A DNA stretch of 44,781 nt, counting the filler, from Catajapyx aquilonaris (Eukaryota), in assembly GCA_000934665.2 (NCBI GenBank). It is 2 parts of 2 records of this genome, joined end to end, with 100 filler letters (N's around TTAATTAATTAA, not from the genome) between each part and the next. Parts side by side here need not be neighbours in the genome. Positions count along the whole stretch, not along the records: positions 22,328 to 44,781 come from JYFJ02005901.1; 1 more part is not named here. The stretch is one strand, 5' to 3'. Of this stretch, positions 22,483-43,431 are shown in pieces (the stretch's first letter is position 1; the number at the start of each line of letters is the position of its first letter). The notes beneath the pieces were generated by a model that did not search any database, was not told where the DNA came from, and saw nothing but the letters and a program-made list of their open reading frames with translations. The translations under genes and the position numbers were made by a program.

Positions 22483-22543
<61 letters not shown>

Positions 22544-23459: not shown

Positions 23460-23535
23460 TACTTCATGTACATAAGTGGTTTAGTGTACGTACAATAAAC
23501 AATGCTGGAGTATGATGTACAATTTTGTATTTCAG

Positions 23536-24465
23536 ATGATGAGCCTTAAAATGATGCGTACACTACTGATGGTGGGCAGAATGTCCAGGGTGACGTCAAC
23601 ACCGATGCGGCTTTCCTCCAGCGTGCCTGGAACCATTTCCAGTTTGCGCAGCAGCTCAGATGCCGATGTGGACAAGGTGTGCGCCAATGGGATGGAGCGT
23701 TTCAAGACATCAACAGCGAACGAAATGACTGAGATACTCCTCAATTACGGTTGCCCTCCAAACGATGTGGCAGAGGTCATCAAGTTGAGTCCGCATCTCC
23801 TGTCGTCGCCGCCCAAGAAGGTCCAGGCAGTTCTGCAAGTTCTACAGGAAAATGGGTTTTCTCCAGAGCAGTGCATCCAGTTTGTGTCGCTTAATTTTGA
23901 AGCAATCCAGTTGGAGTTGGACACCTTCAAGGAGATTCTGGACGAATGGAGGGAGATCGGGATAAGCGAGAAAAATGTAGCTCAACTCCTATCAGAATGG
24001 CCCAATCTGTTCCAGGAAGACATCAGGAACGTTAGGAGAAGAATACATGAATTCAAACTGTACTTTGACACCGGAAAGATTTTTCGTATTCTTCTGGCAT
24101 GCCCAAATGTCATCACCGAAAAATGGGAGGACATTGAAGAAAAACTTGATTACATGTCTGACGAGATGATCATAACCAGAATGGACATTCAGAAGACAGA
24201 AGCCTTGCGTCACTCCCTGAATCACATCAAACTACGGCACACTTTTATGACCAGGGCTGGCCTTTACAAGCGTCCCAACCCCAAATCCACCGTCCCTACA
24301 AAAAACCCAAGCCTTTCAAGCATAGTATGCGCCGACGACCAAGAGTTTGCAACAAAAGTGTGCCACATGACACTAGAGGAGTACTTGGTCTTCCAAGAAA
24401 TGTACAACCTGGAACTCGAGGCAGAATACATGTCGGACTCAGACTCGGACACTTACTCCGAGTAA
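23536..24465 (+). CDS. MTERF4: Mitochondrial transcription termination factor family protein, MTERF4-like (~309 aa)
   Basis: Single coding exon after acceptor ttgtatttcag (23535). R/S/L-rich N-terminus resembling a mitochondrial presequence; mTERF helical repeats (xxPxLL). C-terminal KLRHTFMTRAGLY...NPSLSSIV..DDQEF...TLEEYLVF plus acidic tail, as in MTERF4. ATTAAA at ~24510. Start could alternatively be 22977 (see findings). Confidence 0.85.
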   Translation: MMSLKMMRTLLMVGRMSRVTSTPMRLSSSVPGTISSLRSSSDADVDKVCANGMERFKTSTANEMTEILLNYGCPPNDVAEVIKLSPHLLSSPPKKVQAVLQVLQENGFSPEQCIQFVSLNFEAIQLELDTFKEILDEWREIGISEKNVAQLLSEWPNLFQEDIRNVRRRIHEFKLYFDTGKIFRILLACPNVITEKWEDIEEKLDYMSDEMIITRMDIQKTEALRHSLNHIKLRHTFMTRAGLYKRPNPKSTVPTKNPSLSSIVCADDQEFATKVCHMTLEEYLVFQEMYNLELEAEYMSDSDSDTYSE

Positions 24466-25024: not shown

Positions 25025-27728
25025 ATGGGATTCAAGAGGATTGGATGGTGAGTTACACTGTTTATGAAAAATTGCATTAGTTGCCTTTACTTTATCCACC
25101 GACAGGTTCCTGCCGCATCGACCTTTGCCGTTCTGTCAGCGGACTTCCTGCGCACAGGTGTTTCTTTGGACGTACCTCACCCTCTTGTTGGCTACCACCG
25201 CACTGTTTGTAACCTCGTTAGTGGACCTCCGACATCAGCAGGCTGCTCAGTCGCCTCGGGCCGAGTTGCCTCCAGTACCGTGCCATGTCTTGTCGCAGCT
25301 GTCCACTCCGACTTTCCTAGCGGCGGGATGGACCAAGGCGGTGTACCAGGCCAGGATGGACATACCGGGCAAGACGAAGGCGGACGTGGCGGTTAAAGTG
25401 GTGAATTTGAGCGGAAAGGACTACGTGACTTGTACCAAAGAGCAGGGGCTGTCGGAGAGGTTGTGCTACCAGAGGTCGGCTGCCAAGATACTCAAGGAGA
25501 CTGCGCTACTAATGCATTTGATTCACCCCAACATCGTGAAGGTAACCATTATTCCCAATAGCAACGAGTTTCGATACATAACGAGCCGTTTAATTAGGAC
25601 ACAATGAGTACAATGTCGACGATATTGATACAATTTAATCCCAAGTTTGCATATTAAATCAGGCGGGTTGGATGTGTGCGGGGCATTCAATTAACGAGGG
25701 CAAAGTGCAGACAGGTAGGATGGGAGCCCCACCAGTAATTAGGGACACGGCTTGTCTGGTTTTGAGTAGATAAACAGTGTGACAGGTGGTGGTTAGGAGG
25801 AACAAAACCTGCCCAGCCACTTTATCCCTTCCGAAAAATGAACGACGGAAAAAAAAAAAGCCAAAGGGGGAATTGAAAATGAGGAACACGCATTAAATAT
25901 CCACCTGTTGTTTTTAGACAAAGTTACTTTTGTGGGTCAATAATTAATTGGGTGTACAGGATGTAATTAATGCAGGTTATTGCCGACATGAGAACAAATT
26001 GCTTGCGAATAATTAGTCGTGAAGCACAATGGGTTGTTTCAAATGGAAATCTCACGGAGATCTCAGGAGGTGGAGGAGTGTAACGTTGATAGCGATCGTA
26101 ACATGCTGGGGATAAAGTGATTACCTTGCTGACAGGCAAGTTTGCTATCTCGTAGAAAAGGGAGGGGGATCTTTCTCTCCTTTTTTTGTGAGCAGGTGAA
26201 AGCGTGCAAATTTGATTCGCTTCGCATGCTTTTACTGGTTCCTCCTTTTTTTTGTCGAGATTTTAAAAAATGGGAACAAAAAGTTGCAAGGTCGACTGCC
26301 TGGGAAGTCGTGGGTGACCACTCCACATGTACGAACATGGGCAGCGACTCCCGCATATTTTTCATAAGATCAATGTACCCTGCATTAATTTTGATGGATA
26401 AGTCAAATCCATTATGATTTCACATTTATTTTATCGTAAAGAAATTAGTAAGTATGGTTTCTTCACATAACGAAATCGTGACATGTCCATAGCGATTTTA
26501 TCAGCCTAAATTGTAATAAGTCATCGAACGATGCGAACCTGGTCACCTGGAATAATTAATCGAGCACATGATTTTTGCAGGTTTTGGGCCACTGCGGACC
26601 AGGTTCTTTGTGGCACTTGGATGAATCGCAGTGGAGAGTTGAACATGAAAATGCGGATGGAAGCCATCAAGAAGTGGTTCTTGTCACCGAATTAGGGCAA
26701 CCACTGGATACCATTCGACTTCTGCAGATGCCATGGGAAGATCGACTAAGGGTATTTATATTTGCTCTTTTCTGCCGTTCGTAAAATAGCGATATGAACC
26801 TTTTCTATGGGGCAATAGGTGGCTTATGATGTTGCGTCCCTTCTGGAGTTTTTGGCAACTTCACCGTTAGGCTCACTGTCGGTGAATGATCTGCGGCGCC
26901 AACAGTTTGTGCTAGTCCGAGGGCAGCTGAAGCTTTCCGATGTGGACGACGTGGGTGTGACAGAACCTCTATGCAAGTCTGATCGAGAGTGTTCCGTCGG
27001 ATTTCCTCCGATTCCGCATGGGTAAGAGTACGTTTGGTGTAACTTCAGCCGAATCTGATTGCCATTTTGTACAGGAACGACGATGTGATGGTGCACGTTC
27101 AGTGTGTGCGAGGAGAATGCTTAGGACGTAATGAGAGACACAATGTCCTAAGTGCTGGAAGGCAGCTGGTTCTTCCATTCCTGTCCGTAGGGGCTCCAGA
27201 GGTTCTCCTCCCCCAGGTGGAACAGCTCCTCGATTGCTACTCGTGGCTCCAATGTCCCGCAGCACGCATTGCTCAAGCCACGAGAGAACTTGTGGACCAG
27301 TTCGCAAGGGGTGATTATCGCAATCGTACTGAGGACAGGCGGATTTCTCAAGGTACGTTAAGTTGCTGATTGCAAGTGTCGCATAATTATAGTTTTGTCA
27401 CTTTTCAGGGTTTGAACAGCTGGAAAACCATGACTTGGAAGGGTTGTTTGACTACCCTTGTTCAAAGTCGCTATCTAGTGGAAGCTGCGTTAAGTCAGTG
27501 GCGGATGAGGCAGAAGCCAGGGACATATGCTTGAAAGATGCGTCATGTCGGGCCGTTGTGATGGGGACTGTTACCACTTGGACAGGTATATTTTCCGCTG
27601 TCCACTTCCTACACGTTAACCTCAACAGAAACCTCGTCATTGCAGGAAGGATCCTCGCATTTTTCAAGAACGGCAGCGAGGGACCTACTGTTCACGAGGG
27701 ACACAAGCTGCTTATAAGGACACTATGA
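25025..27728 (+). CDS. PKDCC: Extracellular tyrosine-protein kinase PKDCC/VLK-like (~456 aa)
   Basis: Exons 25025-25047, 25106-25541, 26581-26751, 26819-27021, 27075-27352, 27409-27585, 27646-27728; all GT-AG with consistent phase. N-terminal hydrophobic anchor; LAAGWTKAVY, VAVK, ILKETALL..LIHPNIVKVLG, SPLGSLSVNDLRRQQFVLV.GQLKLSDVDD match PKDCC kinase motifs; Cys-rich C-terminal domain. First exon less certain. Confidence 0.88.
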
Positions 27729-27914
27729 TTTGCATGCTAGTCAAGATCAATCCGACTGTGATATTTCCATCAGGGCAAGAAACATGCCGTCAAACTATCA
27801 ACCAAAAAGCATTTATTCGCTTGTACTTTATATCACACTACACAACAAACAGATAATTAAACATTGATTACATGATTTCAAATTATTTTTTTTTGAAAAT
27901 GCCGCTTCAGGTTG

Positions 27915-30900
27915 TTACACCTTGGGTTTGGAGATTGCAGTGCTGGAAAGAAAGGAGGAATTAATCTCAGTTTAATCTCGTACGACTTGTTATCATGGTA
28001 CTTACAGTGTCGACTTATTGCCGCTAAGAACAATGAAGGGTGATTGCGTCTCCTTCTGCTTATGCTGCAGCAAGGTTAGGGTTCCCAATGGCGTGTCCGT
28101 CGAGCTCATCTGCTTCATCAACTGTCAGGTACGAATTCAAACGTTAGCGAAGAACAAATTTAAAACCATCCCCTCGCACGTTACGGTAACTTTCTTAGCC
28201 CATTTTTGTAAAGACGTTAAACAAAGTCAGGCAGCCACTAATCAGATTAAATGGCTACACTTTGCAACGCAATCTACCATGTAAGTGCCGCTAAGTCACG
28301 GTTAAATCTTAACTGACAGCCGAAATGGTTGGTGGAACCATGCATCAGTAATCTCCTTTTTTCCCCACTCACCATTTCTTGCTCCCGTTTCTTATGCCGC
28401 TTCTCCACCTTATTCTTCCCAGGTCCCTTCCCGTGAAACTTGTGCGAGAGGTACCGGAAAGCCTCCTTAGGGTTAAGAAGCCTTCCATCATCATCAATGT
28501 ATTCCAGCTTGACGTCCGGCTTGTAGGTATCCTTCTCCTTGAATTCAGAAGATGGTCCAGCGTAGTGTTCCCTCCTGCCGAACTTGTCGTCGTCAAAGTA
28601 AGTCTTGTCCTCAATTGAGTAGTGCTGAGCCTCCAGGTGCTTCATGCGAGTGGCAGACACGTTCTTTTTGCTCTCGCGTTCCAGGTAGCCTTTGCTCACA
28701 GCAAGACGCAGGGCTCCAGCCAGGCCCGACCCAACGTCCGGTTCTTCGTCCAGGATGGCAATTTCCTCCGATTTGATCTCCACGGGAGTCTCATCTATTT
28801 CAACCTCATTCCAAGCCCCACGGTTCGTCTCCTCTTCCATTCTAGGCGGCTTCTCTTCCACCGATTCTTTTTCAAAGTCCTGCAAAAGGGAAATTATTTC
28901 GCTAATTACTAACACAGCAGATTCCCCTTCTAACAATTCCTTCAACATTGTAGTTCCGTAACAATAAGAAATCATGAAATGCAGTTATCCCATGGTAAAT
29001 CTCTTCGCTTGAATGACTTGCGACTCAATGAGAGCAATAGCAAATTTGGATACTTATGTGAACACAAGCTGAATCTTTTTGTTTTTAAATTAGGTTCAAT
29101 AAAATTGTCGTACAAATGTGACCATCATCTCCTCTTCATCCTCCTCTCTGTTCCCTGCTAGTCCGTAGGTAGGTATGTCTCCCAGCGTCCGGCAGAATTC
29201 CGCAGTCGAGTTAAGTACGATAAAGCCTTTTCCGGCGGCAAGGGAACCGTCTTCGTCTGCTGGTTCGGCTTTTATATCTTCATCCACCTGCAAGAAAACA
29301 TTGTGATAAAGTCGGTCAATTCAAAAAGACAAAATTATATCCGCACAAACATGATTACATTACCTTCTCTATAAGAGCAGTCTTTCTCTGCTCCTTCTGC
29401 TTCATCTTCCTTGTCTTGTTGAGCGCATTTTGAAGCTCTATTTCCAGGTCATCTGGCTCCAGTTGGACTTCAGATAAGTCTTCAGTTGGGTCTGAAAGTA
29501 CAAATGCCATCACAGTCGGTAGGAAAGCTCACGGGGGGAATTTCCAAGGAAATGAAAATATTGTGCACAGGACTTACATGCAAGATCGTCTGTGTCCAAA
29601 TACTCATCCAGATCCATGGGGACTTCCAGACGCTTGCGAAAAGCAGCGGCCTCTTTCTTACCCTTCGCCAAATCCCTCTCATCGAGCCTTTTGCTTTCTA
29701 CTCCGTCCTCCTTAGCTTTCCTCGACCCCTGATCCTTTGGCGTCGTGTCGGCCATCAAGATCAGGTCATCTGCCTTCAGTACTTTCCTCTTGCGCACGAC
29801 CTTCCTTATCTGGCAGTGAAAACAATTTTTTTTTAAGATTATGGCTTCTTTTTTCCTGTCACTTTTATTGACCCCTTCAACTTACCTTCTTGGTGGGCTT
29901 CTTGAACGTCACCATTTCTTCAGGAGTGAAGTAATCAGTGGCAGGCTGAATTCCTGCTGTGTTCAAGGAGTCTTGGGTTTTCTTCTGCAGTTTAAGGCGG
30001 ATCAGTGCCACTTCTCGGTCCTTGTTGGGAGCTTCGCCAGTTCCTGAAAATGCATTACAAGCCACATATTACCTCTTCAACATTCTGCGCATTACAGTCA
30101 TTGCTTTGCATTTTCAGTGACAATATCAGTACCATTCGCACGATGCAAACTGTGGACTTACCAATGACAAAGCTGGCCTTTTTCTCGCCTTCAATCTCCT
30201 CATCATACTTGGCCAGAATCTGCTTCTTTTTGACGATACCATACTCATCCACCTCGTTCTCCTCATAGGCATTGTAGCCGTAGAGGTAGGGCTTCATCTT
30301 TTTAATCTCTGCATTCTTATCGAAACGCTCCTCATCCATAAGGTTCACGTTCACAAGCACATCCTCCCCGTCTTCCAAAACGCCTTTGTCCTTTATTGTC
30401 AGTATCACATCCCTGCCTTCCACGAATTTATCCTGAGTAAGAAAAACATGAATTAAAATTACTGGCCTGATAGTTACATAGCAGTAAGATGTCAGGATAT
30501 GCAATACACACCGTGTCATGCTGCACTCGTAGCCCAGTCAGGTCTCTGGCTCCATATGCGAAGTTCTTTTCTCGCTGGAACTCCGACTGCACAAGGTCGC
30601 CCACTCCGAATTCAGCGTCAAGCTCCTCCAGTGCCTTGGCCCGCTGCTCGGCTTTCTCCTTCTCCTGCTGTATCCGTCGGGTTCGTTCAACCCAGGCTGC
30701 TGCATTGTCAACTTCCGGATCCTCCGTCGCAGCCAAGGTCTTCACCTTGGAGAGCTTGGCTTCCACCCGGCGCTTCTCCCTGCGCTCTTCCAACCTCTCC
30801 CGTATGGCCTGGGTGCGCTTCACGTCCGAGATGTTCTCAGGGGGCTTGTGCACAAAGTCCTTGTCTGCAGACTTGGATTCTTCTGCCCCTCCTTCCTGCT

Positions 30901-33215
30901 TGGGACCATCTGAGTCCAGCTGGAGGGGCTTTAGGCCCAGTTTTGCTCGTAAGCGGTTTGTCTCGTTGATCGACAGCGACAAGGTGCTTCCACCCCCACT
31001 GTTGTTCTCTACTGGCGAGTCCGATCGGATGCGAGGCGGAGGCGGGGCCTGTGGTAGCCTCTCCAGCTTCGGCATATCAATTTCACCATCTGGGAGAGAT
31101 ATATGCAAAGTTAGTTGCAGTACTGAGGTGTTGACAACAGAAGAACACACAGAAAACCGCATTCTTCCTAGCCATGTAACCGCTCCTCAGTTATTCCTTC
31201 CTAACGCTTGCTCGGTTTTCTTTCAAACATTTTCAGAGACAAGGTGTGTCTAACAATCTCATAAGGCAGGAGAACAAAAACATTAATAGCAATTTAAAAA
31301 ACTAGGGCCCCTAGTACAAACTTCAACAGAACTTTCAGTTTAATCATTTTTTTCCATGAAGGGTAGTTCTGGGCTGCATTCACAAACGGATGTGGTGCAA
31401 GTGAGTTAGGAGACATTCTTGTACCTATCAGCAAATTCCACAGCATTCATTTACATCCTCGCATGAAACATGCCGAGATGACACCAAAAAATACACGTGG
31501 AGAACAGGCCCGGAAAAATTTCTCGTTTCCATTTACCCGTTTCTCTCGTACAAGTTCATACAAGGTGTCCCAGAAGGAACTCACATTCCTGTTGGTGAAG
31601 ACATGCTTCCAACTAAAGTGAGTATCCCGCTTGAAGCGCCAGGGCTCCCCCATACCAAGTTGTTGGCGTCTGGAGCAACCCTAGCACAGAAGTGCCAAGT
31701 GAGGCATGAGAATGAGATTTTCACTGACATGGACCAACTCAATTTTGGGACACCCTGAAATATAAAAAACTAATAATTTCCCTGTGCTTGAGTTTCTGGT
31801 CAAACCAAATGACTGTACATCCTACAGGATATCAAACTTTCCAGGTTATAATTTAGTCCCACATCTCAAAAAATAATCAAAGCAGCTGCTGAAGTATGAA
31901 GATGGATCGTTCACGTATTTCACATCCCGCGCACAGGATCTGAGACCTACTGGGTGCTCCTTTTGTTTTTCTTGAAGAAATGATTCGCTCATAATTCCAA
32001 CAATGAAGTCCCACTATCAGACTATAGTTATAAATTTTAAAACAATACCAATCTTTCGATATACAACGATACAGGATGATGTACTTTCGAAGAAGCGCTG
32101 GGAACTGTGTGACTAGACATTAATCGAAGAAAGGAGGGACTTTCAAAACTACCAAAACCATTTTGTTTGCATCCAAAGAGGTTCTCTTTCTTGCTCTGCA
32201 ATTAATTCTCCCCACTTCTATTGGCAAACACACCCTGCTATCATTTCTTGATGCCTGTATACCTTGTTGGAAATTTCAGCCAGAATTACTCACAATGATT
32301 CAAAGAACTCACACACACAGGAAAACTTCAGTCGAACTTCCCTAAGTCGAAGAAAATTATGTGCTTGGTTGGTCACAATGTAAAATAATAAGAAATAAAC
32401 TTCCCTAAAGGCTGTTTCACGAGGTCGCGATTCCGCCCACTGCTGCGGTTGCGACTGGCGATTCGCGTCCGCCAGCAATTCACGAAAAAAGTAATCACAG
32501 GAAAAGAAGGGCCAGTGCCAACTCCACTTGCTACACAATGCTATTGTGTACTCAATGGGAGGTACACGAATACGTGCACCAATTGTTGACACCATTGAAG
32601 GAAGTAATAAATGACACAGCTGGTCACATGGGTGATTTAATTTTCCTCCCAGGTATTCTTTTAGGAAGGGGCCTCAACACAAAATGATGGGAGTGAATAA
32701 CAGGTAATTAACTGCATGGACAATAACATGGAATGGCACTGGAGGTCTATGGTCGCCATTTTCCACAGCAGCTGCGTATCGATCGCTAGGCACGCGATTC
32801 TCAAAACGCCAACTCGCGATTCAAGATCGCGCAGTGGGCGGGTCCCTCGTCTCGCATCCGCTCCGCTAGCCGGCAACAGATCGCCTCGTGAAACAGCCTT
32901 AACTCTTGGGGAAGGTGCGGTGGCTGAGATGGTAATGTCTCGGCTTGCTGTGCGAAAGGTCCCGGGTTCTATTCCCCGCCCAGGAGTTTACCTCTCGCCT
33001 GCGACAGTGGGTCTCTGGCCCGCGACTAAGGAGGCGTCTTGGCAACCGGCATCCTTTTCCGACATTGCACTTGCACCTGTGTCCCCTCCCAAATTCCCCC
33101 ATCGTTACCCTACTTCCCTAATTGCCCTTTCACAGAGTTTGAAGAAAGATTGGAAAATCAGTCAAAATGGTGGTATTCCACCCCCCCTAAAAGGGCTTCG
33201 TTCCTTCCAATGGGG

Positions 33216-33295
<80 letters not shown>

Positions 33296-35062
33296 CAGCT
33301 TCCCTAACTCGAATTTATATAACTCGAAGGGCTGGCAGGGCCTTACGATGGGATATCAATGCATTTTCAGTCTCCCTAAGTCCAAGTTCATGTTGGCGAG
33401 TACGAAAAATGTTATCATTTCCTAGCCGCAGGGTCGAGAGTAGGCCACATGCACAGAAAGGCTCTTTCCTGATCTCCGTCTACCAGTAATGACTCATGCC
33501 ATCCGTGCCAGGTCCCGATCTAAGAGTAGGCAAATGTCCATAACAGAGTTTTTATTACAACCAACAACGAGGAACATTGTCGCATGATAGCGAGTTATTT
33601 TTAAGCTTTGAACACCTTTTGTCGCTGGATATAGAAGTAGGCTTCCTTATAGAGTTCTGTGCTTAAAAAAGCCAAAACGTCTCTAACTCATTCCAGTCCC
33701 ACGGAGATTCGACTTATGGGAGTTATACTGGATATGGAAATTTTAGTATTTGGGTCTATAAGAAGCGCCCTGTAATAAGTACAGGTAGTGGGCACGAGTT
33801 ACATCCTGTAATACCCTTTACCCCAATGGCTCCTTGATAAGGCGAGTGATTTCTGGAACACAATGGCACAATTATCCGAACATGGTTGTAATACACTGTA
33901 AAGTGTGGAGGCGAACACGTGTCAAAATTCAAGCACTCCTTTATGTAAGTGCTAGTTATCTTGATGTGACACATCTGCCTCCACACAAACTTGTAATATA
34001 AAAAAATGCATCCTTAAAAAAGACTGACCATGGTACCCTAACAGAATCATATGAAATTAAATTTGTAATGAAACACCGACCATACTTCCATATGAACTCC
34101 CCAGATGTATAAACCGCCTCAGGACACGTAATTCATATTTCACGTAATACACCGGACATGTCCAGAGTTAAATCTGGCGACAGTATTGCAATTACTCACA
34201 TTGTTAAGAAATGAATGTGAAAGTATTCTTCTGCAAAATAGCTACTCTTCAAATCATCTGACTAATTAATCATATTCATTGCAATAAAAGATACTTTTCG
34301 GCCCCCTCGGAAAACAAGCACTTTGAAATAAGTACATCAAACTGCCGCTGGGTAAAATCAGCACAATAAATGAATCATGCTCGCAAACAAAAATCGCACA
34401 CTCGGCTTGGGGCAGACAAGTAGTCCCACTCATCAACAATAGCTTACCATGTCCTTAACAGCAGGCGAGGACAAGTTCAGGGCCAGCCTTCACCTGGAAA
34501 AAGGAACAAGAAAATCAGGCAGACTTTTTTTTTCCTCCACAGTTTTTGGTAACCAGCACACACAATTATTCTCATGACGAATCTGGCGAAATATATTACT
34601 TGGGCCATAACAACCGCCATAAATCATGGGTGCTGACTGTTACACTTCTAACCTACACTTATAATACGTAGCGTACCATGGTCAGTCTCCCCCAAAATAT
34701 TACTACGAGGAACAGCCACGATGGCAAGTGCTCTTGCAGCGAAGTCTTTCACTTGACTACTCAGCGGTACTGATCGCCACACTATTGACATTTAGTATTA
34801 CTATTATCTGGGCGACACGGTGGCCGAGTGGTTAGCGCCGCAGCCTTCCAGCTCTAAGGTCCCGAGTTCGATCCTCGGGTCGGACGGAGGATACTTATGT
34901 GGATAGAGTTTCGATGGGTTCTCTCCGTGTTCGCGTGGGTTTTCTCGGGGTTCTCCCGTTTCCTCCCACTATCAAAATCCATCACATTACAGGCAAATGA
35001 TTAAAGTCTGTCTATTAAAAGATGATCCCCTAAGAGGCCCAAGGGGCCTATCACGGGGTATC

Positions 35063-35128
<66 letters not shown>

Positions 35129-35629
35129 TGCACATGAAGTAAGTGTGCATTTTTTTTGAGGAATGATCGAGTGACTTGAGAGAAACATTTTTTTGCCAAT
35201 TTGCTGTTGCAGACTCATCGTTCAAGTCATACAACGAGGATTTGTCACGAGTCATACAAACCCTAAGTAACCACAGTAATACCACGGTAACCATTTTGCC
35301 ATCCTGCCTGTTCCGCATTTTATAAAGAGTACGAAGCGCGGAAACGCACCTTCCAAGTCGATGACCTCCTCCTTGGAGTGCGTCTTCCTTTCAGACCCGT
35401 GGTCCTGATGGGAATCCTTCCTCCTGCTGGAGGTGCTCTCCTTCTCAGCAGCCCCTCTGTGCTTCTTATGGTGATGCCTTCCATCTCTGTCCCTGTCCCC
35501 TCCTCCTCCTCTATCGTCCCTCCGTCCTTCCCCGCCCCTTTCAACCCCCTTCACCTTCTCCCTAGACCTGGACCTGGACCGGTGACGCTTCTTCTTCTTC
35601 TCCTCCTTATGCTTCTTAGACGAACCCAT
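27915..35629 (-). CDS. SART1: U4/U6.U5 tri-snRNP-associated protein 1 (SART1/Snu66), ~820 aa
   Basis: Exons 35629-35350, 31089-30512, 30432-30162, 30043-29886, 29809-29578, 29491-29364, 29287-29123, 28879-28373, 28121-28006, 27942-27915; frame consistent. MGSSKKHK start with RS-like region, HIND motif [66 protein letters not shown] on the minus strand at 27817-27812. Confidence 0.95.
31561..31757. mobile_element. Degenerate mariner/Tc1-type MITE in SART1 intron 1
   Basis: TA-caaggtgtcccagaa ... ttttgggacaccctg (reverse complement cagggtgtcccaaaa, 13/15); right TA not preserved. Confidence 0.55.
32409..32899. mobile_element. PIF/Harbinger-type MITE (491 bp)
   Basis: Perfect 16-bp TIR AGGCTGTTTCACGAGG...CCTCGTGAAACAGCCT with TAA on both flanks (32406-32408, 32900-32902); internal inverted ccgcccactgc/gcagtgggcgg. 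Confidence 0.85.
32908..33295 (+). mobile_element. tRNA-derived SINE with (TAA)n tail
   Basis: Pol III A box tggctgagatgg (32921-32932), B box ggttctattcc (32965-32975), ~300-nt body, (TAA)n tail 33218-33292, reconstructable 12-bp TSD cttccctaactc. Confidence 0.8.
34448..34493 (-). other. Putative 46-nt poison cassette exon of SART1
   Basis: Minus strand: ctgattttcttgttcctttttccag | gtgaaggctggccctga...ggacatg | gtaagc. Joined to exon 1 (phase 1) it reads G-E-G-W-P-stop. Confidence 0.6.
34810..35123 (+). mobile_element. tRNA-derived V-domain SINE with (TTA)n tail
   Basis: A box tggccgagtgg (34821-34831), B box gttcgatcc (~34866-34874). Central ttctctccgtgttcgcgtgggttttctcggggttctcccgtttcctcccac resembles the V-SINE core. 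Tail 35064-35123. Confidence 0.85.
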
Positions 35630-36035
35630 CTTCAATCAGCCGCAGATAATTCGAACTATCGAACACACGCGAAAAAATTAAAACGTAACCGAAGCGACAG
35701 ACGCCATTACGTGCAACACGGCCCGTTCCTACGGCTGTACCTGTGCAGTAAGGCAATTACGATGTGTGTTAATCCAGCTTAATTTAAACACCTAAATGTG
35801 GATTGTAACATTTGGTTAATTAGTAACTGATATGTACATACAAACATGTGCATGTACACGCTGTAATTGTGCTAATTTGACAGTGCAAATGATGTCAGCG
35901 TGCACAGTTTGGCAACTGTGCGTTCAATGCGTCAGTCGCAGTCCGACCAATCAGCTACCGCCAAACCGTGCCGTTAACCAATCAGAACCCTGCAACTGCC
36001 ACATGTAAACACCCTCCAAATCCCCATGGCAACGG
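35630..36035. promoter_or_regulatory. Putative bidirectional promoter SART1 / PP2A-A
   Basis: Immediately upstream of the SART1 ATG; CpG-rich; candidate + strand donor gca|GTAAGG at 35748; two ccaatcag boxes (35947, 35978); tgtaaaca (36004); ccatggcaac (36024-36033). Confidence 0.5.
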
Positions 36036-36932
36036 TTGTTCCATCATCCTTCCTATATATTTTTTAAAAAACCTATTTAATTTAACATCAATGCTCATAA
36101 CCATATTTAAATATAATCCGCACTAAAGGCATTTATTCCAGTGCTTTTAAACCCCCCCCCCTCCCCCCTCCCAGCACACATCCTGCCCTCCCTCCTTTTT
36201 TTTATCCCCCTTTTTTTTTCCAGTGCACCCCCGGAGCCTCCATTGCAAAATTCCGGGGATCGGTCCACCAGAAGTGTCCCTCCCGCCTCCAGAGTGTCCA
36301 GGGCATTCTCCAGTCGGACACCCGCCACAACAGGTCCCACAAGCTCCGGGTAAGGCTAAAGGGAAAAGATTGGGAGGGGGGAAGGGGTGGAGCCGCGCCG
36401 GAGAGAACGGGGGGGGTGATGTATTCCAAAAAAGGGGAAGCTCAGGAGGAGGAACGCCCTTTCGGTGCGTTTGCGAGGGCAAGACACCCCAGGGGCAGTT
36501 GGCCCCCTCGAAATTAGTTGGGTTAGAACACTTTGTGCTGAGGAGGAGAGGGGGGGATTCGGCCTTGGAAGGGTTCGGTTTAATATTGAGGTGAAGGCCA
36601 TTGTTGCACTTTGCCATTGTGACATGTCAATAGTTTGTTGATGGGGTTTGAAGGCTGCTGTGGGGTACCAGCCTCATTGCAATTATTATTGAAGGGTACG
36701 CAGTATGGACAGAGCGACACTGGAGAACAGCGGAATAAATAGTAGGCTAATAATGCATTAAATAATAACAATGAAATAAATATAATAAAATAACAGCACT
36801 AATAAATAGCTCATAGATAATAATATGAATTACAGGGATCTGTACTTACGAACGGGCTCCCAAGGCTCCCCGGAACAAGGGGTAAGTCACTGGGCTGATG
36901 AGCGTACAACAGACTTGGCGCCTTATGCTGTA

Positions 36933-37631: not shown

Positions 37632-37682
<51 letters not shown>
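37632..37682. repeat. (TAA)n microsatellite, possibly a retroposon tail
   Basis: ~17 taa units. Confidence 0.9.
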
Positions 37683-37684
<2 letters not shown>

Positions 37685-38490
37685 GTGTCAAGTAGGGTCG
37701 AAACTGATTTATTTGGTCAAAGTACTGTAGGATTAGACTGCCTAAGCTCCTCACGTAAATAAGATTGGCAGGTGTATATTGAGGAAAGCATCCGAATGTT
37801 TGCAGTGTCATGAGTGTGACGTAGCTTGTTAGCCTGATTTCAATGAAAACACTGCACTTATCTCTGGATTGCGCAATGGCCAGTGTTGTCACAATCATGG
37901 TCGATATGGAGTATGTATAGTATACCTTGTGACTCACCCAAATGGGTCAAGATTCTGTAAGTTCATTCAGCTCCTTATGCTTTTAAAATGCGTCTGCACA
38001 TGTGACTGTGCATGCTGAAGGGATCATTGGTGGAAAACAAAGGGATTTTAGAGCCCCTTGCTTGTCAGTCCTCATTGTAATCGCTTGCAACATTGTTCAG
38101 TCTCATGATAGGACATTTGCAGTCATACGGTAATCTCAATTCGGAATTGGTGAAACCTGCTTGTAACTTACCATGTATTCGGCACAAACTTCTGCTAAAA
38201 TTTTTGCCTCATTGCAGAGAAGGGTTCATCTTGTTAGACGTACCAGAAACCAGTTCAGTGCAGATAGGTTCATCTGACAGATTGACTTTGATGCAGACAT
38301 GTCTCACGGTGCATGTCTATTGTGCAACTTATGGCGTGCGCTAGTCAATTGCTTTCTATTGCTCATTAATCCTAATAGGATGGGCATTGTGTAAATTTAA
38401 TGGCACGGAAAAGTCTTACTCAATGCGACTTTTTAAGTTTTCAGAATTATATTAGTGGTTGATCCTCACTTTTTAATGTTACGCAGGTGG

Positions 38491-38587: not shown

Positions 38588-41500
38588 ATGGCAGCCAGCG
38601 ACACTGCAGGAGACGACTCCCTGTACCCAATTGCAGTCTTGATTGATGAGCTACGAAATGAGGATGTTCAGGTAAAAAGTCATGCTGAATTTATAATTGC
38701 TCCTCCTTTCCTTGTTTGGAATTACCCATGGCACTGATTATGACTTGATGTTGAATTGCATCTCCACAGCTGAGACTCAACTCCATCAAGAAGCTGTCGA
38801 CCATCGCACTGGCGCTGGGAGTGGAGCGCACCCGCACAGAACTCATCCCGTTTCTGACAGACACAATTTATGATGAGGATGAGGTTCTTTTGGCATTGGC
38901 TGAACAGCTCGGCAACTTCACAGCACTTGTCGGAGGATCAGATTATGTTCACTGCCTCCTGGTGAGTAGTTTCACTCCCGAGTTTGTAGGAACTTTTTTT
39001 GTACAAATGGCAGGAAAACTCAAGCCACTTTCATTTTTGCAGCCTCCCCTTGAGTCCTTGGCCACAGTGGAGGAGACAGTCGTCCGTGACAAGGCAGTGG
39101 ACTCCCTCCGTGCCATCTCCAACCAGCACAGCACTGCCGACCTGGAAGGCCATTTTGTTCCACTGGTTAAGCGGCTGGCGTCTGGGGATTGGTTCACCTC
39201 TCGGACATCTGCTTGCGGATTGTTCGGCGTCTGCTACGTCCGCGTATCGGCTGCGGTGAAGAGCGAGCTGAGAAACCACTTCCGCAACCTCTGCCAGGAT
39301 GACACGCCCATGGTTCGCAGAGCGGCTGCCTCCAAGCTCGGGGAATTTGCAAAGGTCGTGGAGGTGGAATACCTGAAGTCAGACCTCATCCCCATGTTTG
39401 TCAATCTGGCGCAGGATGAGCAGGTCAGTGCTGCAACTTCTGGTTGTAGTAAACCAATTTGCATTGCTGCTGTTTGGTTTTGCTTATCTCGGCACTTGTA
39501 CTTTGCAGGACTCTGTGCGCCTCCTGGCAGTGGAGGCATGTGTGAACATAGCCTCTCTGCTGCAGCAAGAGGACGTGGAGCAGCTGGTGATGCCCACTCT
39601 CCGTTTATGCACAGAAGACAAGTCATGGCGGGTTCGCTACATGGTGGCAGACAAGTTCACGGAGATACAGAAGGCAGTAGGAGCAGAAATAACTAAGACC
39701 GACCTGGTGCCTGTCTTCCAATCCCTGCTGAAGGACTGTGAAGCGGAGGTGCGGGCGGCAGCAGCGCACAAGGTAATTTTCTGCTGCATATGCTTTCTCC
39801 ATGTGTGAGACGCGTGTGACATTGATTGTGTTCCTGCAGGTGCGAGACTTCTGTCAGGGGCTGGAGACGAGTGTGCAAGAATCTGTCATCATGAACAACA
39901 TACTCCCCTGCGTCAAGGAACTGGTGGCCGACCCCAACCAACACGTCAAGTCCGCCCTGGCCTCCGTCATAATGGGACTCTCTCCCATACTTGGCAAGCA
40001 CAAGTATGTAGCAAGGTTGCTGGAGTATGGAGAATGCGGATGGAGTTTACGAAATTGGATCTTTCTTCCGCAGCACTGTGGAACATCTGCTCCCCTTGTT
40101 CCTGTCCCAGCTGAAGGACGAGTGTCCGGAGGTGCGCCTAAACATCATTTCCAATCTGGATTGTGTCAATGAGGTCATTGGGATCCAGCAGGTAAGGTGT
40201 ATTGACTGGAAGATGTGCAGATGATTTCTCTTCTAGTGCTGTCTGACTCTGCCTTGACTTTTCATCCCTCGATTCTTGATACTAGTGCGGACAGAAAGAT
40301 CGTGGAACATTGCAGGGGGATTAACTTTTTAAGACAGGCAGCATTTAGGGCCCCGCGACCCATGTGCACCGGTGCTTCCCGTGACAAAAGGACCTCAGGA
40401 TTTATGCATTTGTCTTCTCGCAATGAAAATCTTTGAAGTTTTTACAACATGATTGTAAATTTAATTAATTTTTGGCCGCCTTTAGGTCTAATCAATCTGC
40501 AATCCCCCCCTTTTTTTTCTCACTCATGGAAATAAGTTCAGTAGTGAATTATTATTACAAGTGCAGGAGAGGCAAATTGTGGGATTCTGACATGTTTTCA
40601 TTGCAATGCTTTCTATCCACCTGTTAAATCTGAGCAGTTGTGTTATTTGTGAGTTTGTCACATTTGCAATCGAGTGTACCTGAGTATGGGGAAAATTAGA
40701 TTACAGCAAAGTAATGTGTGTATTAGCAATGCAGGCTAGTGTTCCTTTCTGGAAATCACTTGCTGTCCGCAGTAACATCGCTTCCATACGTACATCATGT
40801 GTTACTGTACTCAACGGTTGGAAGTAATAACGTTAACGTCTAGTTCCTTCTTCCTGTTAAAGGTATCGTCCATTGCCAATTTATATGTTGATTTGTGATA
40901 TAAAGTGCTCTTACCTTGACTTTTATGCTAAAGACCAAGCGCTGTTGAGACATGGTTGTGACGACATTTAGGTTCGACTCAGTCACTGTGTCACTGGTAC
41001 TGGTCTCTAGGCTCATCAACATATTGTCACGCCTCGCTGATAAAAAATGAGTATTTAATGGCTGAACGGCTACAAAATGTAACTGAATTTACATGAAGTT
41101 AGTTTCATCTGCAAGGCAGTTAATGATTGGCAGTGGACGTCAGTAAGACTAGGTGTAACATTTTGACGTATGTGCAATTAATTAATTGTTAAATATTCAG
41201 TGCTAATGTTGAAGTTATGTCTAGGTGTCATCGAGCAGGAGCAAAAATCACACCATTTTTTGTTTCTTATCATTTGCTGTTTCTCACCTTTTCTTCTTTT
41301 TTTCCCCATTACATACCTATGTGGGTGTAACAATTGTCATATGAGCATCGTGTAATTTAGAAACAGCATGATCTCTGAAGGAACGAACATTGGACACCAG
41401 CATTACATCGGGTTGGCGCAATCATTAAGATTGCGGAAGGCTTATGTTACACCTACACGGCTACACCATCCACTTCTTTCTGCTTTTTTCTTATTATTTT

Positions 41501-42831
41501 CCTCTTATTTTTATCTGGTGTAATGCTGTCAAAGTCAACAGTCCGCGAATGTGGCAGTGCTCCACTGCTAGCAGTGGTGTAAAGTGAATGGATCAGCGGC
41601 AGATACTAATGCTGCATCATCCACCTTGATGAACCCACCTTCAGAGGCTACTAATCCATTGATTTACACCGTTGCCACATTTGTGGACTGCGACATTGCC
41701 AAAGTTACGCTCTGAATTTTATTTTTATGGGGTTTGAAATTTGAGCCAGTTAGGCATTCGATTAACATGCCTGAGGAAATGAGAAGCAGTGACATGCAGT
41801 AAGTTTTTTTGATTTTGTTTTCGAATTGCTGACTGGCTGGCCGTGTAATACATGGCAAATATCCCACGGGGTGGCTTAAGTTCTTTTGAGTTACCTTTTT
41901 TTCACGGGGTGGGAGAATGTTGGTGAAGGAAGCGTTAGTCGTTTAGTTGAAAATCTGAAAATGTGGCTAAAGAGTAGAGCAGATGGGTTCCTCACAGCTA
42001 TCACAGTCGCTGCTGCCCGCCATCGTGGAACTAGCGGAGGACACCAAATGGCGAGTGCGCCTGGCCATCATTGAGTACATGCCGCTCCTGGCAGGGCAGC
42101 TGGGGATGGACTTCTTCGATGAGAAGCTCAACGCCCTCTGCATGACCTGGCTGGTTGACCACGGTTGGTACATCAGGACTTGCAAGTTGGAGCTGTGTCT
42201 CTGAACAAAAAAATGTTCCTTCTTGTCTTGCAGTGTATGCCATTCGTGAGGCAGCAACTCTGAACCTGAAGAAATTGGTAGAGAAGTTTGGGTCGGAGTG
42301 GGCGCAGAATACTGTCATACCAAAAGTATTGGCCATGTCTAGGGACCAGAACTACCTCCACCGCATGACCTGCCTCTTTTGTGTCAATGTGAGTGCTTGC
42401 ATAATTCATCAGTGTTTCTTGACGTTAAATATATTTGTCATTTGGGAGCAGGTCTTGGCTGAAGTATGCGGGCCTGACATGACCGCCAAGCTAATGCTGC
42501 CCACAGTCCTCGGCATGGCGTCAGACAATGTGGCCAACGTCCGCTTCAACGTGGCCAAGACCCTACAAAAGATTGGTCCAATTCTTGATCCAACGTGAGT
42601 GCAATTGTTGATTTCATCCTGCTGCACAGGACTAAATCCTCTGATTAATTTCCAGCACCCTTCAATCACAAGTCAAACCTGTCTTGGAAAAGCTTAACAT
42701 CGATGCCGATGTGGATGTCAAATATTTTGCTTCAGAAGCAATAGCAGGTGCGTTCAAATACTTTTGTCCCCGTGAATGTTTGTTTTGCACTAAAACCTTT
42801 TTCCTCTTTTTTTTTCGCAGCACTTGGTTAG
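38588..42831 (+). CDS. PPP2R1A: Serine/threonine-protein phosphatase 2A 65 kDa scaffold subunit A (HEAT repeats), ~589 aa
   Basis: Exons 38588-38671, 38770-38961, 39043-39423, 39509-39772, 39840-40003, 40074-40191, 41998-42163, 42234-42388, 42452-42594, 42656-42747, 42821-42831. Diagnostic [99 protein letters not shown]. Single invertebrate ortholog of PPP2R1A/B (Pp2A-29B). Last exon less certain. Confidence 0.96.
40192..41997 (+). other. Highly structured PP2A-A intron 6 (series of G-U-rich stem-loops)
   Basis: Helices 40867-40881/41125-41139, 40883-40892/41015-41024, 41320-41332/41445-41457, 41539-41558/41671-41690, 41576-41600/41647-41670, 41744-41761/41821-41838. Confidence 0.65.
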
Positions 42832-43431
42832 AGGTAGCGAAGACTGCATTATTATTTTTCCGTTGTTTTGGTTTCCAGGTAAGAATAAACTACTTGTGTC
42901 AGGAGACCATGTTAAAGGTGCAAGTAGCAAACACAAAGGATGAGGACTTATAATATTCTTTTTCCCCCCTATCTGTGAGAGTGGTGGAAGAGAGAGATAT
43001 GTTCCAAGAGTGAATTTTTTCTTTTTCTTTTTGGCTCCTCATTTGCTTTGCCTTACCTTTCTATTTTATTTCACTCGTAGCTCCAATACAAACTTTGAAG
43101 CCACATTCCCTGAGCCCCCTCGTGATTGGTCAGTTTCTCACCAGGATTATTTTTGAGCGGTCTTGATTGCTTCAAATTTTTTTTTTGAAAATCTTTTCCA
43201 AGTAACTGACGAAATTGTTGCATGTGACGTATACAGCCAATTTTTGCAATGTTTTTTGCATGCAGCAATTTCTCTTGTGTACCAGACAAGAAAAGAAATG
43301 TTTGTATGTCAATTCCCACCTTTTTGCAAAGATGTAGGGTGGAACTTTTAACTGCCTGAAAGTAAAAGATAGGATTTGCAATTTCCACTAACAAGGTTGA
43401 AACTATGCGAGGAAAACGCATCCTTCATACA

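Follow-up and report, generated by a model that had tools for sequence, protein, structure and literature searches.

Does the first intron of the SART1 gene of Catajapyx aquilonaris hold a short, stop-carrying cassette exon that is really used in splicing? The question is raised by a 46-nt segment that lies, with what look like splice signals of its own, inside the gene's only long intron, and that, if included, would end the SART1 reading frame early. We analysed the whole stretch of DNA around it (44,781 nt, hereafter the window) with respect to the host gene, the content of the intron, the rarity of the signals and the predicted consequences of exon use. In what follows, a slash marks an exon-intron boundary.

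The host gene and its long first intron

The minus-strand host gene is SART1/Snu66, and is arthropod-like, according to matches with protein domains, structure chains and orthologues. Exons 2, 3 and 8 match the Pfam family SART-1 (PF03343) at profile positions 2-89 (E 2.2e-16), 91-175 (E 3.5e-24) and 408-585 of 585 (E 8.9e-40), respectively, and a HIND motif (PF19252; E 2.9e-10; residues 36-58 of exon 2) precedes the SART-1 domain. The human SART1 chain 5o9z_P is matched by exon 8 (E 1e-37) and by exon 2 (E 2.9e-33), the yeast Snu66 chain 5nrl_E is also matched (E 5.2e-7), and the best orthologue is 52% identical over exon 2. Exon 1 carries the conserved N-terminus of the family, that is, MGSSKKHK followed by an RS/K-rich stretch: its first 25 residues align with residues 1-26 of dragonfly SART1 with 19/26 identity (E 4e-6), and an MG[SATK].. 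start is found in 97 of the 120 orthologues listed. The whole exon 1 peptide, a low-complexity query, gave no match in a PDB search. The full frame comprises about 820 codons, and the gene model is as follows.

35350..35629, minus strand: SART1 coding exon 1 (280 nt; ATG at 35629; RS/K-rich N-terminus; ends GGAAG/gtgcgt, phase 1)
31090..35349, minus strand: intron 1 (4260 nt; GTGCGT...CTAAC branch at -22...CCCAG)
30512..31089, minus strand: SART1 exon 2 (HIND motif and start of the SART-1 domain; RNA contigs over 30511-30742 and 30826-31054)
27942..30432, minus strand: SART1 exons 3-10 (sequence model and eight CT..AC joints in one spliced RNA contig)
30432-30162, 30043-29886, 29809-29578 and 29491-29364, minus strand: SART1 exons 3-6 (model and RNA contig)
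29287-29114, 28879-28373, 28121-28006 and 27942 onward, minus strand: SART1 exons 7-10 (model and RNA contig)

The RNA contigs derive from one small run (share 0.23, not on record as RNA) and were placed on positions 27000-36500. The spliced contigs span exons 2-10 only; exon 1, the 46-nt candidate exon and both junctions of the candidate lie outside their coverage. All eight joints of introns 2-9 (79, 118, 76, 86, 76, 234, 251 and 63 nt) are present in one spliced contig, which also fixes GTACGA as the donor of the 234-nt intron 7. The assignment of exon 1 draws on an ATG-led open frame, on phase-1 fit and on the likeness of its N-terminus to those of the dragonfly protein and other orthologues, and the exon 1/exon 2 junction is predicted from frame and homology. 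The original prediction had named SART1 as the host and intron 1 as its sole long intron; the domain, chain and N-terminus matches bear out the first statement, and the contig joints, which give 63-251 nt for the other eight introns vs. 4260 nt for intron 1, bear out the second.

Intron 1 contains two repeat blocks.

34608..35241, unstranded: repeat (transposon-like) block (depth 223-296; many contigs 90-95% alike; (ATT)n at 35064-35123)
32072..33973, unstranded: second repeat block (depth up to 117; contigs 90-95% alike; (ATT)n at 33217-33298)

With respect to transcription, the first block precedes the candidate exon, and the open reading frames of the second block match no Pfam family. Because repeat or transposon sequence makes up at least about 59% of intron 1, the length of the intron need not signal regulation. 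Comparison of intron 1 with the window returned only the (ATT)n runs, an Rfam search of the intron returned only two sub-threshold CrcZ artefacts, both on microsatellites, and a tRNA search of the intron returned none. The candidate exon itself is single-copy in the window and lies inside a 634-nt bin that is free of repeat pile-up.

Splice signals of the 46-nt segment

The signals that would define the candidate exon, together with a second donor-like sequence at its start, are as follows.

34448..34493, minus strand: candidate cassette exon (46 nt; stops in all three frames)
34494..34518, minus strand: candidate 3' splice-site module (CTGAT branch, pyrimidine tract, CAG; score 12.3)
34442..34447, minus strand: candidate 5' splice site (GACATG/gtaagc, that is, ATG/GTAAGC; exon end 34448; score 4.8)
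34488..34493, minus strand: donor-like GTGAAG at the start of the candidate exon (CAG/GTGAAG; AAG/GTGAAG once exon 1 is joined)

The acceptor reads ...cctgattttcttgttcctttttccag/GTGAAGG, with its AG at 34495-34494 and the exon start at 34493. The branch-like CTGAT occupies 34518-34514, the tract at 34514-34496 consists of pyrimidines at 18 of its 19 positions, and no AG intervenes between CTGAT and the acceptor; the branch A, at 34515, is at -22, the same spacing as at the true exon 2 acceptor. All the elements that the original prediction had described, namely a 46-nt exon with CTGAT, a pyrimidine tract, CAG and ATG/GTAAGC, are thus in place on the minus strand. The GC content of the segment is 0.57 vs. 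0.43 for its flanks. The segment is not a coding exon that gene annotation would have missed, because it contains stops in every frame. At 46 nt it is short for exon definition, a point against reading it as a cassette exon.

Scores were computed with a crude matrix of approximate base frequencies, and the scored features were picked after the site had already been flagged by eye. By this matrix the candidate acceptor (12.3) outscores every other acceptor-like site on either strand of the 44.8-kb window; the real SART1 acceptors range from -0.65 to 8.3, and the candidate donor (4.8) compares with a median of 4.55 for the real donors. Intron 1 contains five donor-like sites with scores of at least 3, two of which are the sequence at the start of the candidate exon and the one 46 nt onward. 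The window contains 24 acceptor-like sites with scores of at least 7.5, and only one of the 24, the candidate, has a CTRAY branch in its AG-free zone. The full module, defined as an acceptor of at least 5 with a CTRAY branch in the AG-free zone and a donor of at least 3 within 20-300 nt, was found a single time in 89.5 kb (both strands), at the candidate site. In dinucleotide-shuffled versions of the intron, the full module appeared in 27/1000, and with the acceptor at 7.5 or more and the donor at 4.5 or more it appeared in 5/1000. The results indicate that the splice signals of the candidate go moderately beyond chance. As read from the DNA, the splice signals of the candidate form a complete set, and one that is statistically unusual.

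According to the hypothesis that the segment is a chance pseudo-exon, these signals arose by coincidence in a first intron rich in repeats, and the splicing machinery either ignores them or uses them only as noise. Pseudo-exons are common in long introns. The uniqueness of the site depends on the branch: with the branch-site criterion dropped, acceptor/donor pairs of similar or lower grade number 3-27 in the window (7 with an acceptor of at least 7.5 and a donor of at least 4.5, and 27 at lenient thresholds), several of the 24 high-scoring acceptor-like sites are plainly non-functional, and high-scoring look-alikes lie on the strand opposite to coding exons (28423+ and 28685+ are examples). 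The post hoc choice of the site by eye points the same way, as does the RNA structure near the candidate: folding of the 201-nt stretch centred on the exon is no more stable than that of shuffled sequence (z +0.43), and a hairpin between an A-run and the pyrimidine tract, at -13 kcal/mol, falls short of significance (z -1.47; an equally good fold in 15 of 200 shuffles). The idea that RNA structure masks the candidate acceptor was dropped. A search for the truncated product, in which the exon 1 peptide was compared with proteins of 51-163 aa, returned none at E <= 0.001, which counts weakly for a pseudo-exon since the species is perhaps absent from the database; against proteins of 164-2000 aa the same low-complexity query found no match.

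Set against the pseudo-exon hypothesis are the uniqueness of the branch-including module in 89.5 kb and its appearance in 0.5-2.7% of shuffles, the rank of the acceptor as the best in the window, and the position of that acceptor, 856 nt past the exon 1 donor and ahead of the weaker true acceptor, where the spliceosome would hardly pass it over. The stop codon adds no weight on either side, because any 46-nt insert shifts the frame. Conservation was sought in metagenome scans, which gave 411 pattern-matching stretches with the exon 2 protein, none of them a relative, and 0 matches with 23 nt of the candidate exon; the index searched for related loci contained no look-alike window, by position or by exon 8 protein. 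We regard a chance pseudo-exon as a substantial possibility, only slightly less probable than an exon that is used.

Predicted consequences of exon use

The reading that we adopt, tentatively and at somewhat less than an even chance, is that the 46-nt segment is competent for splicing and does serve as a cassette exon that carries a stop. On this reading the exon 1 donor (35350) would pair with the acceptor at 34493, which is very strong and is reached by transcription 3.4 kb ahead of the weaker true acceptor at 31089, and the donor at 34448 would then be spliced to exon 2. The feature on which the outcome would turn is as follows.

34477..34479, minus strand: in-frame TGA (codon 99 with the candidate exon included)

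The joined exons read ...VIDLE-GEGWP-TGA, in which the TGA follows 98 sense codons and lies upstream of nine junctions, namely the candidate/exon 2 junction and the eight seen in the RNA contig. Translation of the joined exons thus agrees with the earlier claim of a TGA after about 98 codons with nine junctions downstream. The resulting mRNA would stop at codon 99 with more than 2 kb of mRNA and the nine junctions beyond, and for that reason would be expected to be removed by nonsense-mediated decay (NMD); SART1 output would be lowered by the fraction of transcripts that take the inclusion route. We conclude that the predicted inclusion product is, in its anatomy, that of an NMD-coupled poison exon, with decay of the isoform as the predicted outcome. 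The original prediction of a poison exon is thus supported in part: it stands as regards its SART1 host, its full set of signals and its codon-99 stop, and is weakened as regards its argument from intron length, at least about 59% of the intron being repeat, and by the GT at the start of the exon, which makes recursive splicing a rival reading.

A further step, that inclusion rises with tri-snRNP or SART1 activity and so closes a homeostatic loop, is the weakest link of the proposal, and we consider such a loop unlikely. We know of no indication that SART1 is a sequence-specific RNA binder, so any feedback by SART1 would be indirect. In the literature searched, no paper was found that connects CG6686, which we take to be a gene name for SART1, with nonsense-mediated decay. 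The same literature yielded no link between SART1 and a poison exon, unproductive splicing or autoregulation by NMD; the texts on such autoregulation that name SART1 do so in other contexts.

Two other hypotheses give the module a function without a cassette exon in the normal sense. The first is that the module acts as a decoy exon, which binds U2AF/U2 and U1 and then stalls, so that intron 1 is retained and the transcript stays nuclear. The concept of intron retention through decoy exons comes from vertebrate work. What speaks for a decoy here is the presence of a strong, short, exon-like module in the sole long intron of a spliceosome gene; RNA contig depth is 0 over the unique sequence of intron 1 (31121-32071 and 33974-34607), which speaks against retention, though the run was small. 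We hold a decoy to be very improbable.

The second is that the module is a ratchet point for recursive splicing, a serious alternative because the exon begins with GT directly after the acceptor. Exon 1 would join the acceptor at 34493, and the regenerated AAG/GTGAAG would then act as a donor that removes the exon together with the remaining 3.4 kb of the intron; the exon would normally be absent from the mRNA, and inclusion through the downstream donor would represent a failure or a regulated outcome. The GTGAAG scores 3.99 in place and 3.47 once regenerated, within the range of real SART1 donors, and a donor-like sequence directly after the acceptor occurs at only 6 of the 184 acceptor-like sites with scores of at least 3 in the window. 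A length of 46 nt, a frame shift with stops and a downstream donor (4.8) agree with the anatomy of Drosophila recursive exons, which are cryptic, out-of-frame exons of about 50 nt with a downstream donor in the account of Joseph et al. 2021 (PMC8605326). However, GTGAAG lacks a +5 G, the regenerated donor scores lower than the exon's own donor (3.47 vs. 4.80, by the same crude matrix), the reverse of the order general in that class, and the intron, at 4.3 kb, is far shorter than those of most ratchet points described in the same text. We consider recursive splicing at this site improbable.

The cassette and recursive hypotheses can be combined, in a form that we rate as more improbable still: a recursive-type poison exon that serves as a gauge of tri-snRNP activity, and through which a core factor that does not bind RNA itself would obtain feedback via a ratchet point. 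According to this hypothesis, exon 1 would always join the dominant acceptor at 34493 first, and the fate of the transcript would be a contest of two nearly matched donors 46 nt apart: AAG/GTGAAG, which has no +5 G and would lean more on U5/U6 contacts, and ATG/GTAAGC, which has a +5 G and would be U1/U6-friendly. Because SART1 recruits the U4/U6.U5 tri-snRNP, SART1 abundance would shift the contest, and with it the balance between productive mRNA and mRNA bound for NMD. The layout of the candidate, an acceptor followed at once by a donor-like sequence, also offers a simple and testable system for asking how the state of the core machinery is read out when two donors compete.

Use of the exon would add SART1 to the small group of core spliceosome genes, SNRPB among them, whose output is limited by inclusion of a stop exon, and homeostasis of this kind would reach the factor that brings the tri-snRNP to the spliceosome, in an arthropod-like animal. 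If the exon is not used, the site is a calibration case, in which a module unique in 90 kb can still be a decoy.

Comparison with known systems

Poison exons are known from SR and hnRNP genes, where they are ultraconserved (Lareau 2007 and Ni 2007, both cited by PMC4109005; review PMC9895063). They share with the cassette exon proposed here the coupling of alternative splicing to NMD, which acts there, and would act in SART1, as a homeostatic brake on a splicing factor. Unlike SART1, a tri-snRNP recruitment factor, the SR and hnRNP proteins recognise defined motifs in their own pre-mRNA.

A lead on alternative exons at the homologous position of SART1 comes from Periplaneta americana, in which the RefSeq isoforms X2-X4 have three short alternative N-termini in place of the one encoded by exon 1. 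The replacement falls exactly on the corresponding phase-1 junction, so that exon 2 is joined there by alternative exons. The isoforms X1-X4 share with the gene described here the phase-1 junction between an RS-rich first coding exon and the exon that encodes PPPP/HIND. In Periplaneta, three alternative upstream exons join exon 2, replacing or following exon 1, as judged from protein sequences; these exons have no sequence likeness to the 46-nt candidate. They may be stop-carrying cassette exons within intron 1, which would make a parallel to the candidate, or alternative first exons, the isoforms then simply reflecting alternative promoters.

Drosophila ratchet points with cryptic recursive-splicing exons are described for Ubx, kuz and Bx by Joseph et al. 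2021 (PMC8605326), the Bx intron measuring about 31 kb and the Ubx intron about 73 kb. In these ratchet points and in the candidate alike, a donor-like GT directly follows the acceptor, and the cryptic exon is short (~50 nt), out of frame and followed by a second donor; harm from inclusion, and an outcome set by which of the two donors is chosen, are further traits of the class that are predicted for the candidate. The ratchet points described there generally have a stronger donor than that of the recursive-splicing exon, and weakening of that donor leads to inclusion; the candidate differs in that its regenerated donor is the weaker one (3.5 vs. 4.8), in that it has no +5 G, and in that its intron is 4.3 kb.

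A close parallel to the cassette exon that we favour is the PTC exon in intron 2 of SNRPB (SmB/B'), through which a core snRNP protein is autoregulated by NMD according to Lynch et al. 2014 (PMC4109005), who cite Saltzman 2008/2011. In that account the SNRPB exon is highly conserved, shown in RNA, responsive to SmB and equipped with a suboptimal 5' splice site, whereas the SART1 candidate is known from its sequence and has an acceptor that is maximal, not weak; the splice sites of known poison exons, as SNRPB illustrates there, are often suboptimal, which counts against the cassette reading. The two genes share the status of general spliceosome components, as opposed to sequence-specific regulators, and an intronic cassette exon with a stop, a candidate one in SART1. 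They would also share, on the proposal made here, a read-out in the form of how efficiently the core machinery works at sites that compete or are suboptimal, and the principle of the stop exon is, by the same source, established for a core spliceosome gene, SNRPB.

The SART1 gene and its first intron

The minus-strand gene running from 35629 to about 27900 is identified by its sequence matches as SART1/Snu66, the host gene named in the original prediction. A profile search matches exons 2, 3 and 8 to Pfam SART-1 and also places a HIND motif (Pfam) in exon 2; human SART1 from tri-snRNP structures (5o9z_P) matches exon 8 (E 1e-37) and exon 2 (E 2.9e-33), and yeast Snu66 likewise matches exon 8. 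The nearest orthologues are only ~50% identical on exon 2; the best matches include cockroach, termite, dragonfly and crayfish. The model rebuilt from sequence begins with two exons:

35629-35350, minus strand, SART1 exon 1
31089-30512, minus strand, SART1 exon 2, after which eight further exons follow

Logan contigs of a single run (X1; 32 million letters) proved to be spliced RNA. One 2936-nt contig skips eight intervals that begin with CT and end with AC on the plus strand; they correspond to SART1 introns of 79, 118, 76, 86, 76, 234, 251 and 63 nt; the last, 63-nt intron brings the total to ten coding exons. The contig also sets the intron 7 donor at GTACGA (29113), not GTCACA (29122). This exon 7 donor, TTT/GTACGA (slashes mark junctions), is poor (score -3.5) and lies 9 nt past GTCACA, the site implied by frame alone, with a gain of three residues (29114-29122, minus strand).

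Searched in full length, the low-complexity peptide of exon 1 returned no match; its first 25 residues match residues 1-26 of dragonfly SART1 (19/26 identity, E 4e-6), and an MG[SATK].. start is found in 97 of the 120 listed orthologues. The X1 contigs cover neither exon 1 nor its junction with exon 2. The predicted 4260-nt intron 1 is well founded, since the phase-1 end of exon 1 fits the first two bases of exon 2, which complete a D codon.

The original prediction had stressed that this is the gene's only long intron. The lengths stand (4260 nt vs. 63-251 nt), but the argument is weakened by repeat content: repeat pile-up bins at 32072-33973 and 34608-35241 make up about 59% of the intron. 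The many contigs piled up there are only 90-95% alike, with X1 depths up to 296, and derive from dispersed repeat copies that are expressed at other sites. Each repeat block adjoins an (ATT)n run (33217-33298, 35064-35123). Searches of intron 1 for Rfam families and tRNAs found none, and no Pfam family matched ORFs of the repeat blocks. Microsatellites of the (ATT)n/(AAT)n type, each 50-80 nt long, occur four times in the window (22483-22543, 33217-33298, 35064-35123, 37632-37685), and the two in intron 1, each next to a repeat block, look like tails of a dispersed non-autonomous element.

Several neighbouring features were also observed. A plus-strand gene at 27020-27942, with no Pfam match to its ORFs, converges on SART1; the RNA contig with SART1 exons 3-10 continues into three plus-strand exons with GT..AG introns of 53, 56 and 60 nt, and, since one contig spans both genes, their 3' ends abut or overlap. 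Just upstream of the SART1 start, a pyrimidine-/C-rich low-complexity stretch (36101-36626) has several open frames and, on the plus strand, two strong acceptor-like sites (36175, 36224) before a donor at 36349; a promoter region, or the 5' exon of a divergent transcript, may lie here. At 38755-42878 (plus strand) lies a HEAT-repeat gene resembling the PP2A scaffold subunit (Pfam HEAT, PPP2R1A-like HEAT), with a probable last coding exon from 42821, behind the window's second-strongest acceptor (11.9); CAG/GTAAGA 58 nt further on hints at another intron in the 3' UTR. A 326-codon open frame at 23485-24465 (plus strand) encodes an mTERF domain (E 1.6e-14).

Anatomy of the 46-nt segment and expectation by chance

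The segment predicted as a poison exon lies in intron 1, in a bin (34291-34607) free of such pile-up:

34493-34448, minus strand, candidate exon, 46 nt

On the minus strand it reads gtctgcCTGATtttcttgttcctttttccag/GTGAAGGCTGGCCCTGAACTTGTCCTCGCCTGCTGTTAAGGACATG/gtaagc, so that the branch site, pyrimidine tract, CAG and gtaagc donor are present as claimed. The branch-site A lies 22 nt upstream, with no AG between and pyrimidines at 18 of the 19 intervening bases. Translation of the model agrees with the predicted early stop: inclusion would give ...VIDLE GEGWP and then TGA at codon 99 (34479-34477), ahead of nine junctions. Stops occur in all three frames, ruling out a missed coding exon. The stop is uninformative, because any 46-nt insert shifts the frame. 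There is no second copy in the window and no significant RNA structure around the segment, and the X1 contigs do not cover it. An A-rich run (GGAGGAAAAAAAAAG, within 34494-34542, minus strand) can pair with the pyrimidine tract in a hairpin that leaves the branch site in the loop (-13 kcal/mol), not significant against shuffles (z -1.47).

Splice sites were scored with simple log-odds matrices built on approximate frequencies, and the scores are only rough in absolute terms. The gene's real donors range from -3.5 to 8.0 (median 4.55), its real acceptors from -0.65 to 8.3. The candidate donor scores 4.8, and the candidate acceptor, at 12.3, is the top acceptor-like site on both strands of the whole window. 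Only five donor-like sites of at least 3 lie inside intron 1, two of them at the candidate (its first base and its end). High-scoring acceptor look-alikes alone are not rare: 24 score at least 7.5 in 89.5 kb, and some of these, antisense to coding exons, are surely inert. Acceptor/donor pairs in the window number 3 to 27, depending on threshold, if no branch site is required. A full module was taken to be an acceptor of at least 5, preceded at 15-45 nt by a CTRAY branch site with an AG-free zone, and followed within 20-300 nt by a donor of at least 3. The window contains exactly one, the candidate. Dinucleotide-preserving shuffles of the intron contain a module in 27 of 1000 cases, falling to 5 of 1000 with an acceptor of at least 7.5 and a donor of at least 4.5. 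Such a branch site accompanies only 4 of 77 acceptor-like sites of at least 5 and 2 of 9 real SART1 acceptors; one of these two is the exon 2 acceptor at the end of intron 1, also at -22. Because the module is unique in the window and rare in shuffles, it is unlikely to be accidental (roughly 0.5-3% per intron, before allowing for picking by eye). We conclude that the observation is confirmed and moderately beyond chance. That the segment is an unused pseudo-exon is a real possibility, at somewhat less than an even chance. Two metagenome scans, with the exon 2 protein and with 23 nt of the segment, yielded no relative.

Alternative exons at the homologous junction

Periplaneta americana SART1 has four RefSeq isoforms (X4-X1). 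Isoform X1 (776 aa; distinct from the RNA run) starts MGSTKKHK... and continues ...YDSE/DDVIAVPPPP, and X2, X3 and X4 start MTAKHQISS/DDVIAV, MLYE N/DVIAV and ME D/DVIAV. The short peptides replace the RS-rich, exon-1-encoded N-terminus exactly at the homologous exon 1/exon 2 junction. Because the D/N/D switch is that expected for a phase-1 intron there, the isoforms indicate three different upstream exons joined to the cockroach exon 2 acceptor. They may be stop-carrying cassettes within intron 1 whose annotated reading frame starts at a later ATG, or else alternative first exons. In termites, a cockroach and stick insects, several ab initio models likewise depart from the others here, probably where gene finders lose the distant exon 1.

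Possible splicing outcomes and known systems

The candidate opens with GT, a feature absent from the original prediction, so that a donor-like hexamer follows its acceptor without a gap (CAG/GTGAAG). Of the window's 184 acceptor-like sites, only 6 have such a donor directly behind. Joining to exon 1 would give AAG/GTGAAG, which scores 3.47, within the range of SART1's real donors. By analogy, this fusion has the layout of recursive splice sites. Joseph et al. 2021 (PMC8605326) describe Drosophila ratchet points as an acceptor and a donor in tandem, at the head of a cryptic exon of about 50 nt. Such exons show little conservation, are mostly out of frame and have a second donor at their far end. 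In most cases the ratchet donor prevails and the exon is lost, whereas a weakened ratchet donor leads to inclusion. The candidate shares the short out-of-frame exon and the downstream donor, and a donor-like GT follows its acceptor. However, its regenerated donor is weaker than its own donor (3.5 vs. 4.8) and lacks a +5 G, and its intron is only 4.3 kb, so that the fit to recursive splicing is partial. A ratchet-type exon that is normally removed is improbable. Should the module be used, the donor balance predicts substantial inclusion, not clean removal. A decoy exon promoting intron retention is very improbable. Our tentative preference, a little short of an even chance, is a stop-carrying cassette exon that would really be spliced in.

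The anatomy partly supports the poison-exon interpretation. Among the papers searched, none linked SART1, under this name or that of the fly gene, to a poison exon, to unproductive splicing or to regulation of its own level via NMD, and the passages that name SART1 in a review tabulating known autoregulated splicing factors do so only in another context (PMC9895063). A homeostatic loop acting through SART1/tri-snRNP activity is, overall, rather unlikely. The principle that spliceosomal factors autoregulate through NMD is established: SNRPB, which encodes a core snRNP protein, limits its own output via NMD by means of a PTC exon in intron 2 whose 5' splice site is suboptimal (PMC4109005). A SART1 loop, if real, would be control of an already known kind.
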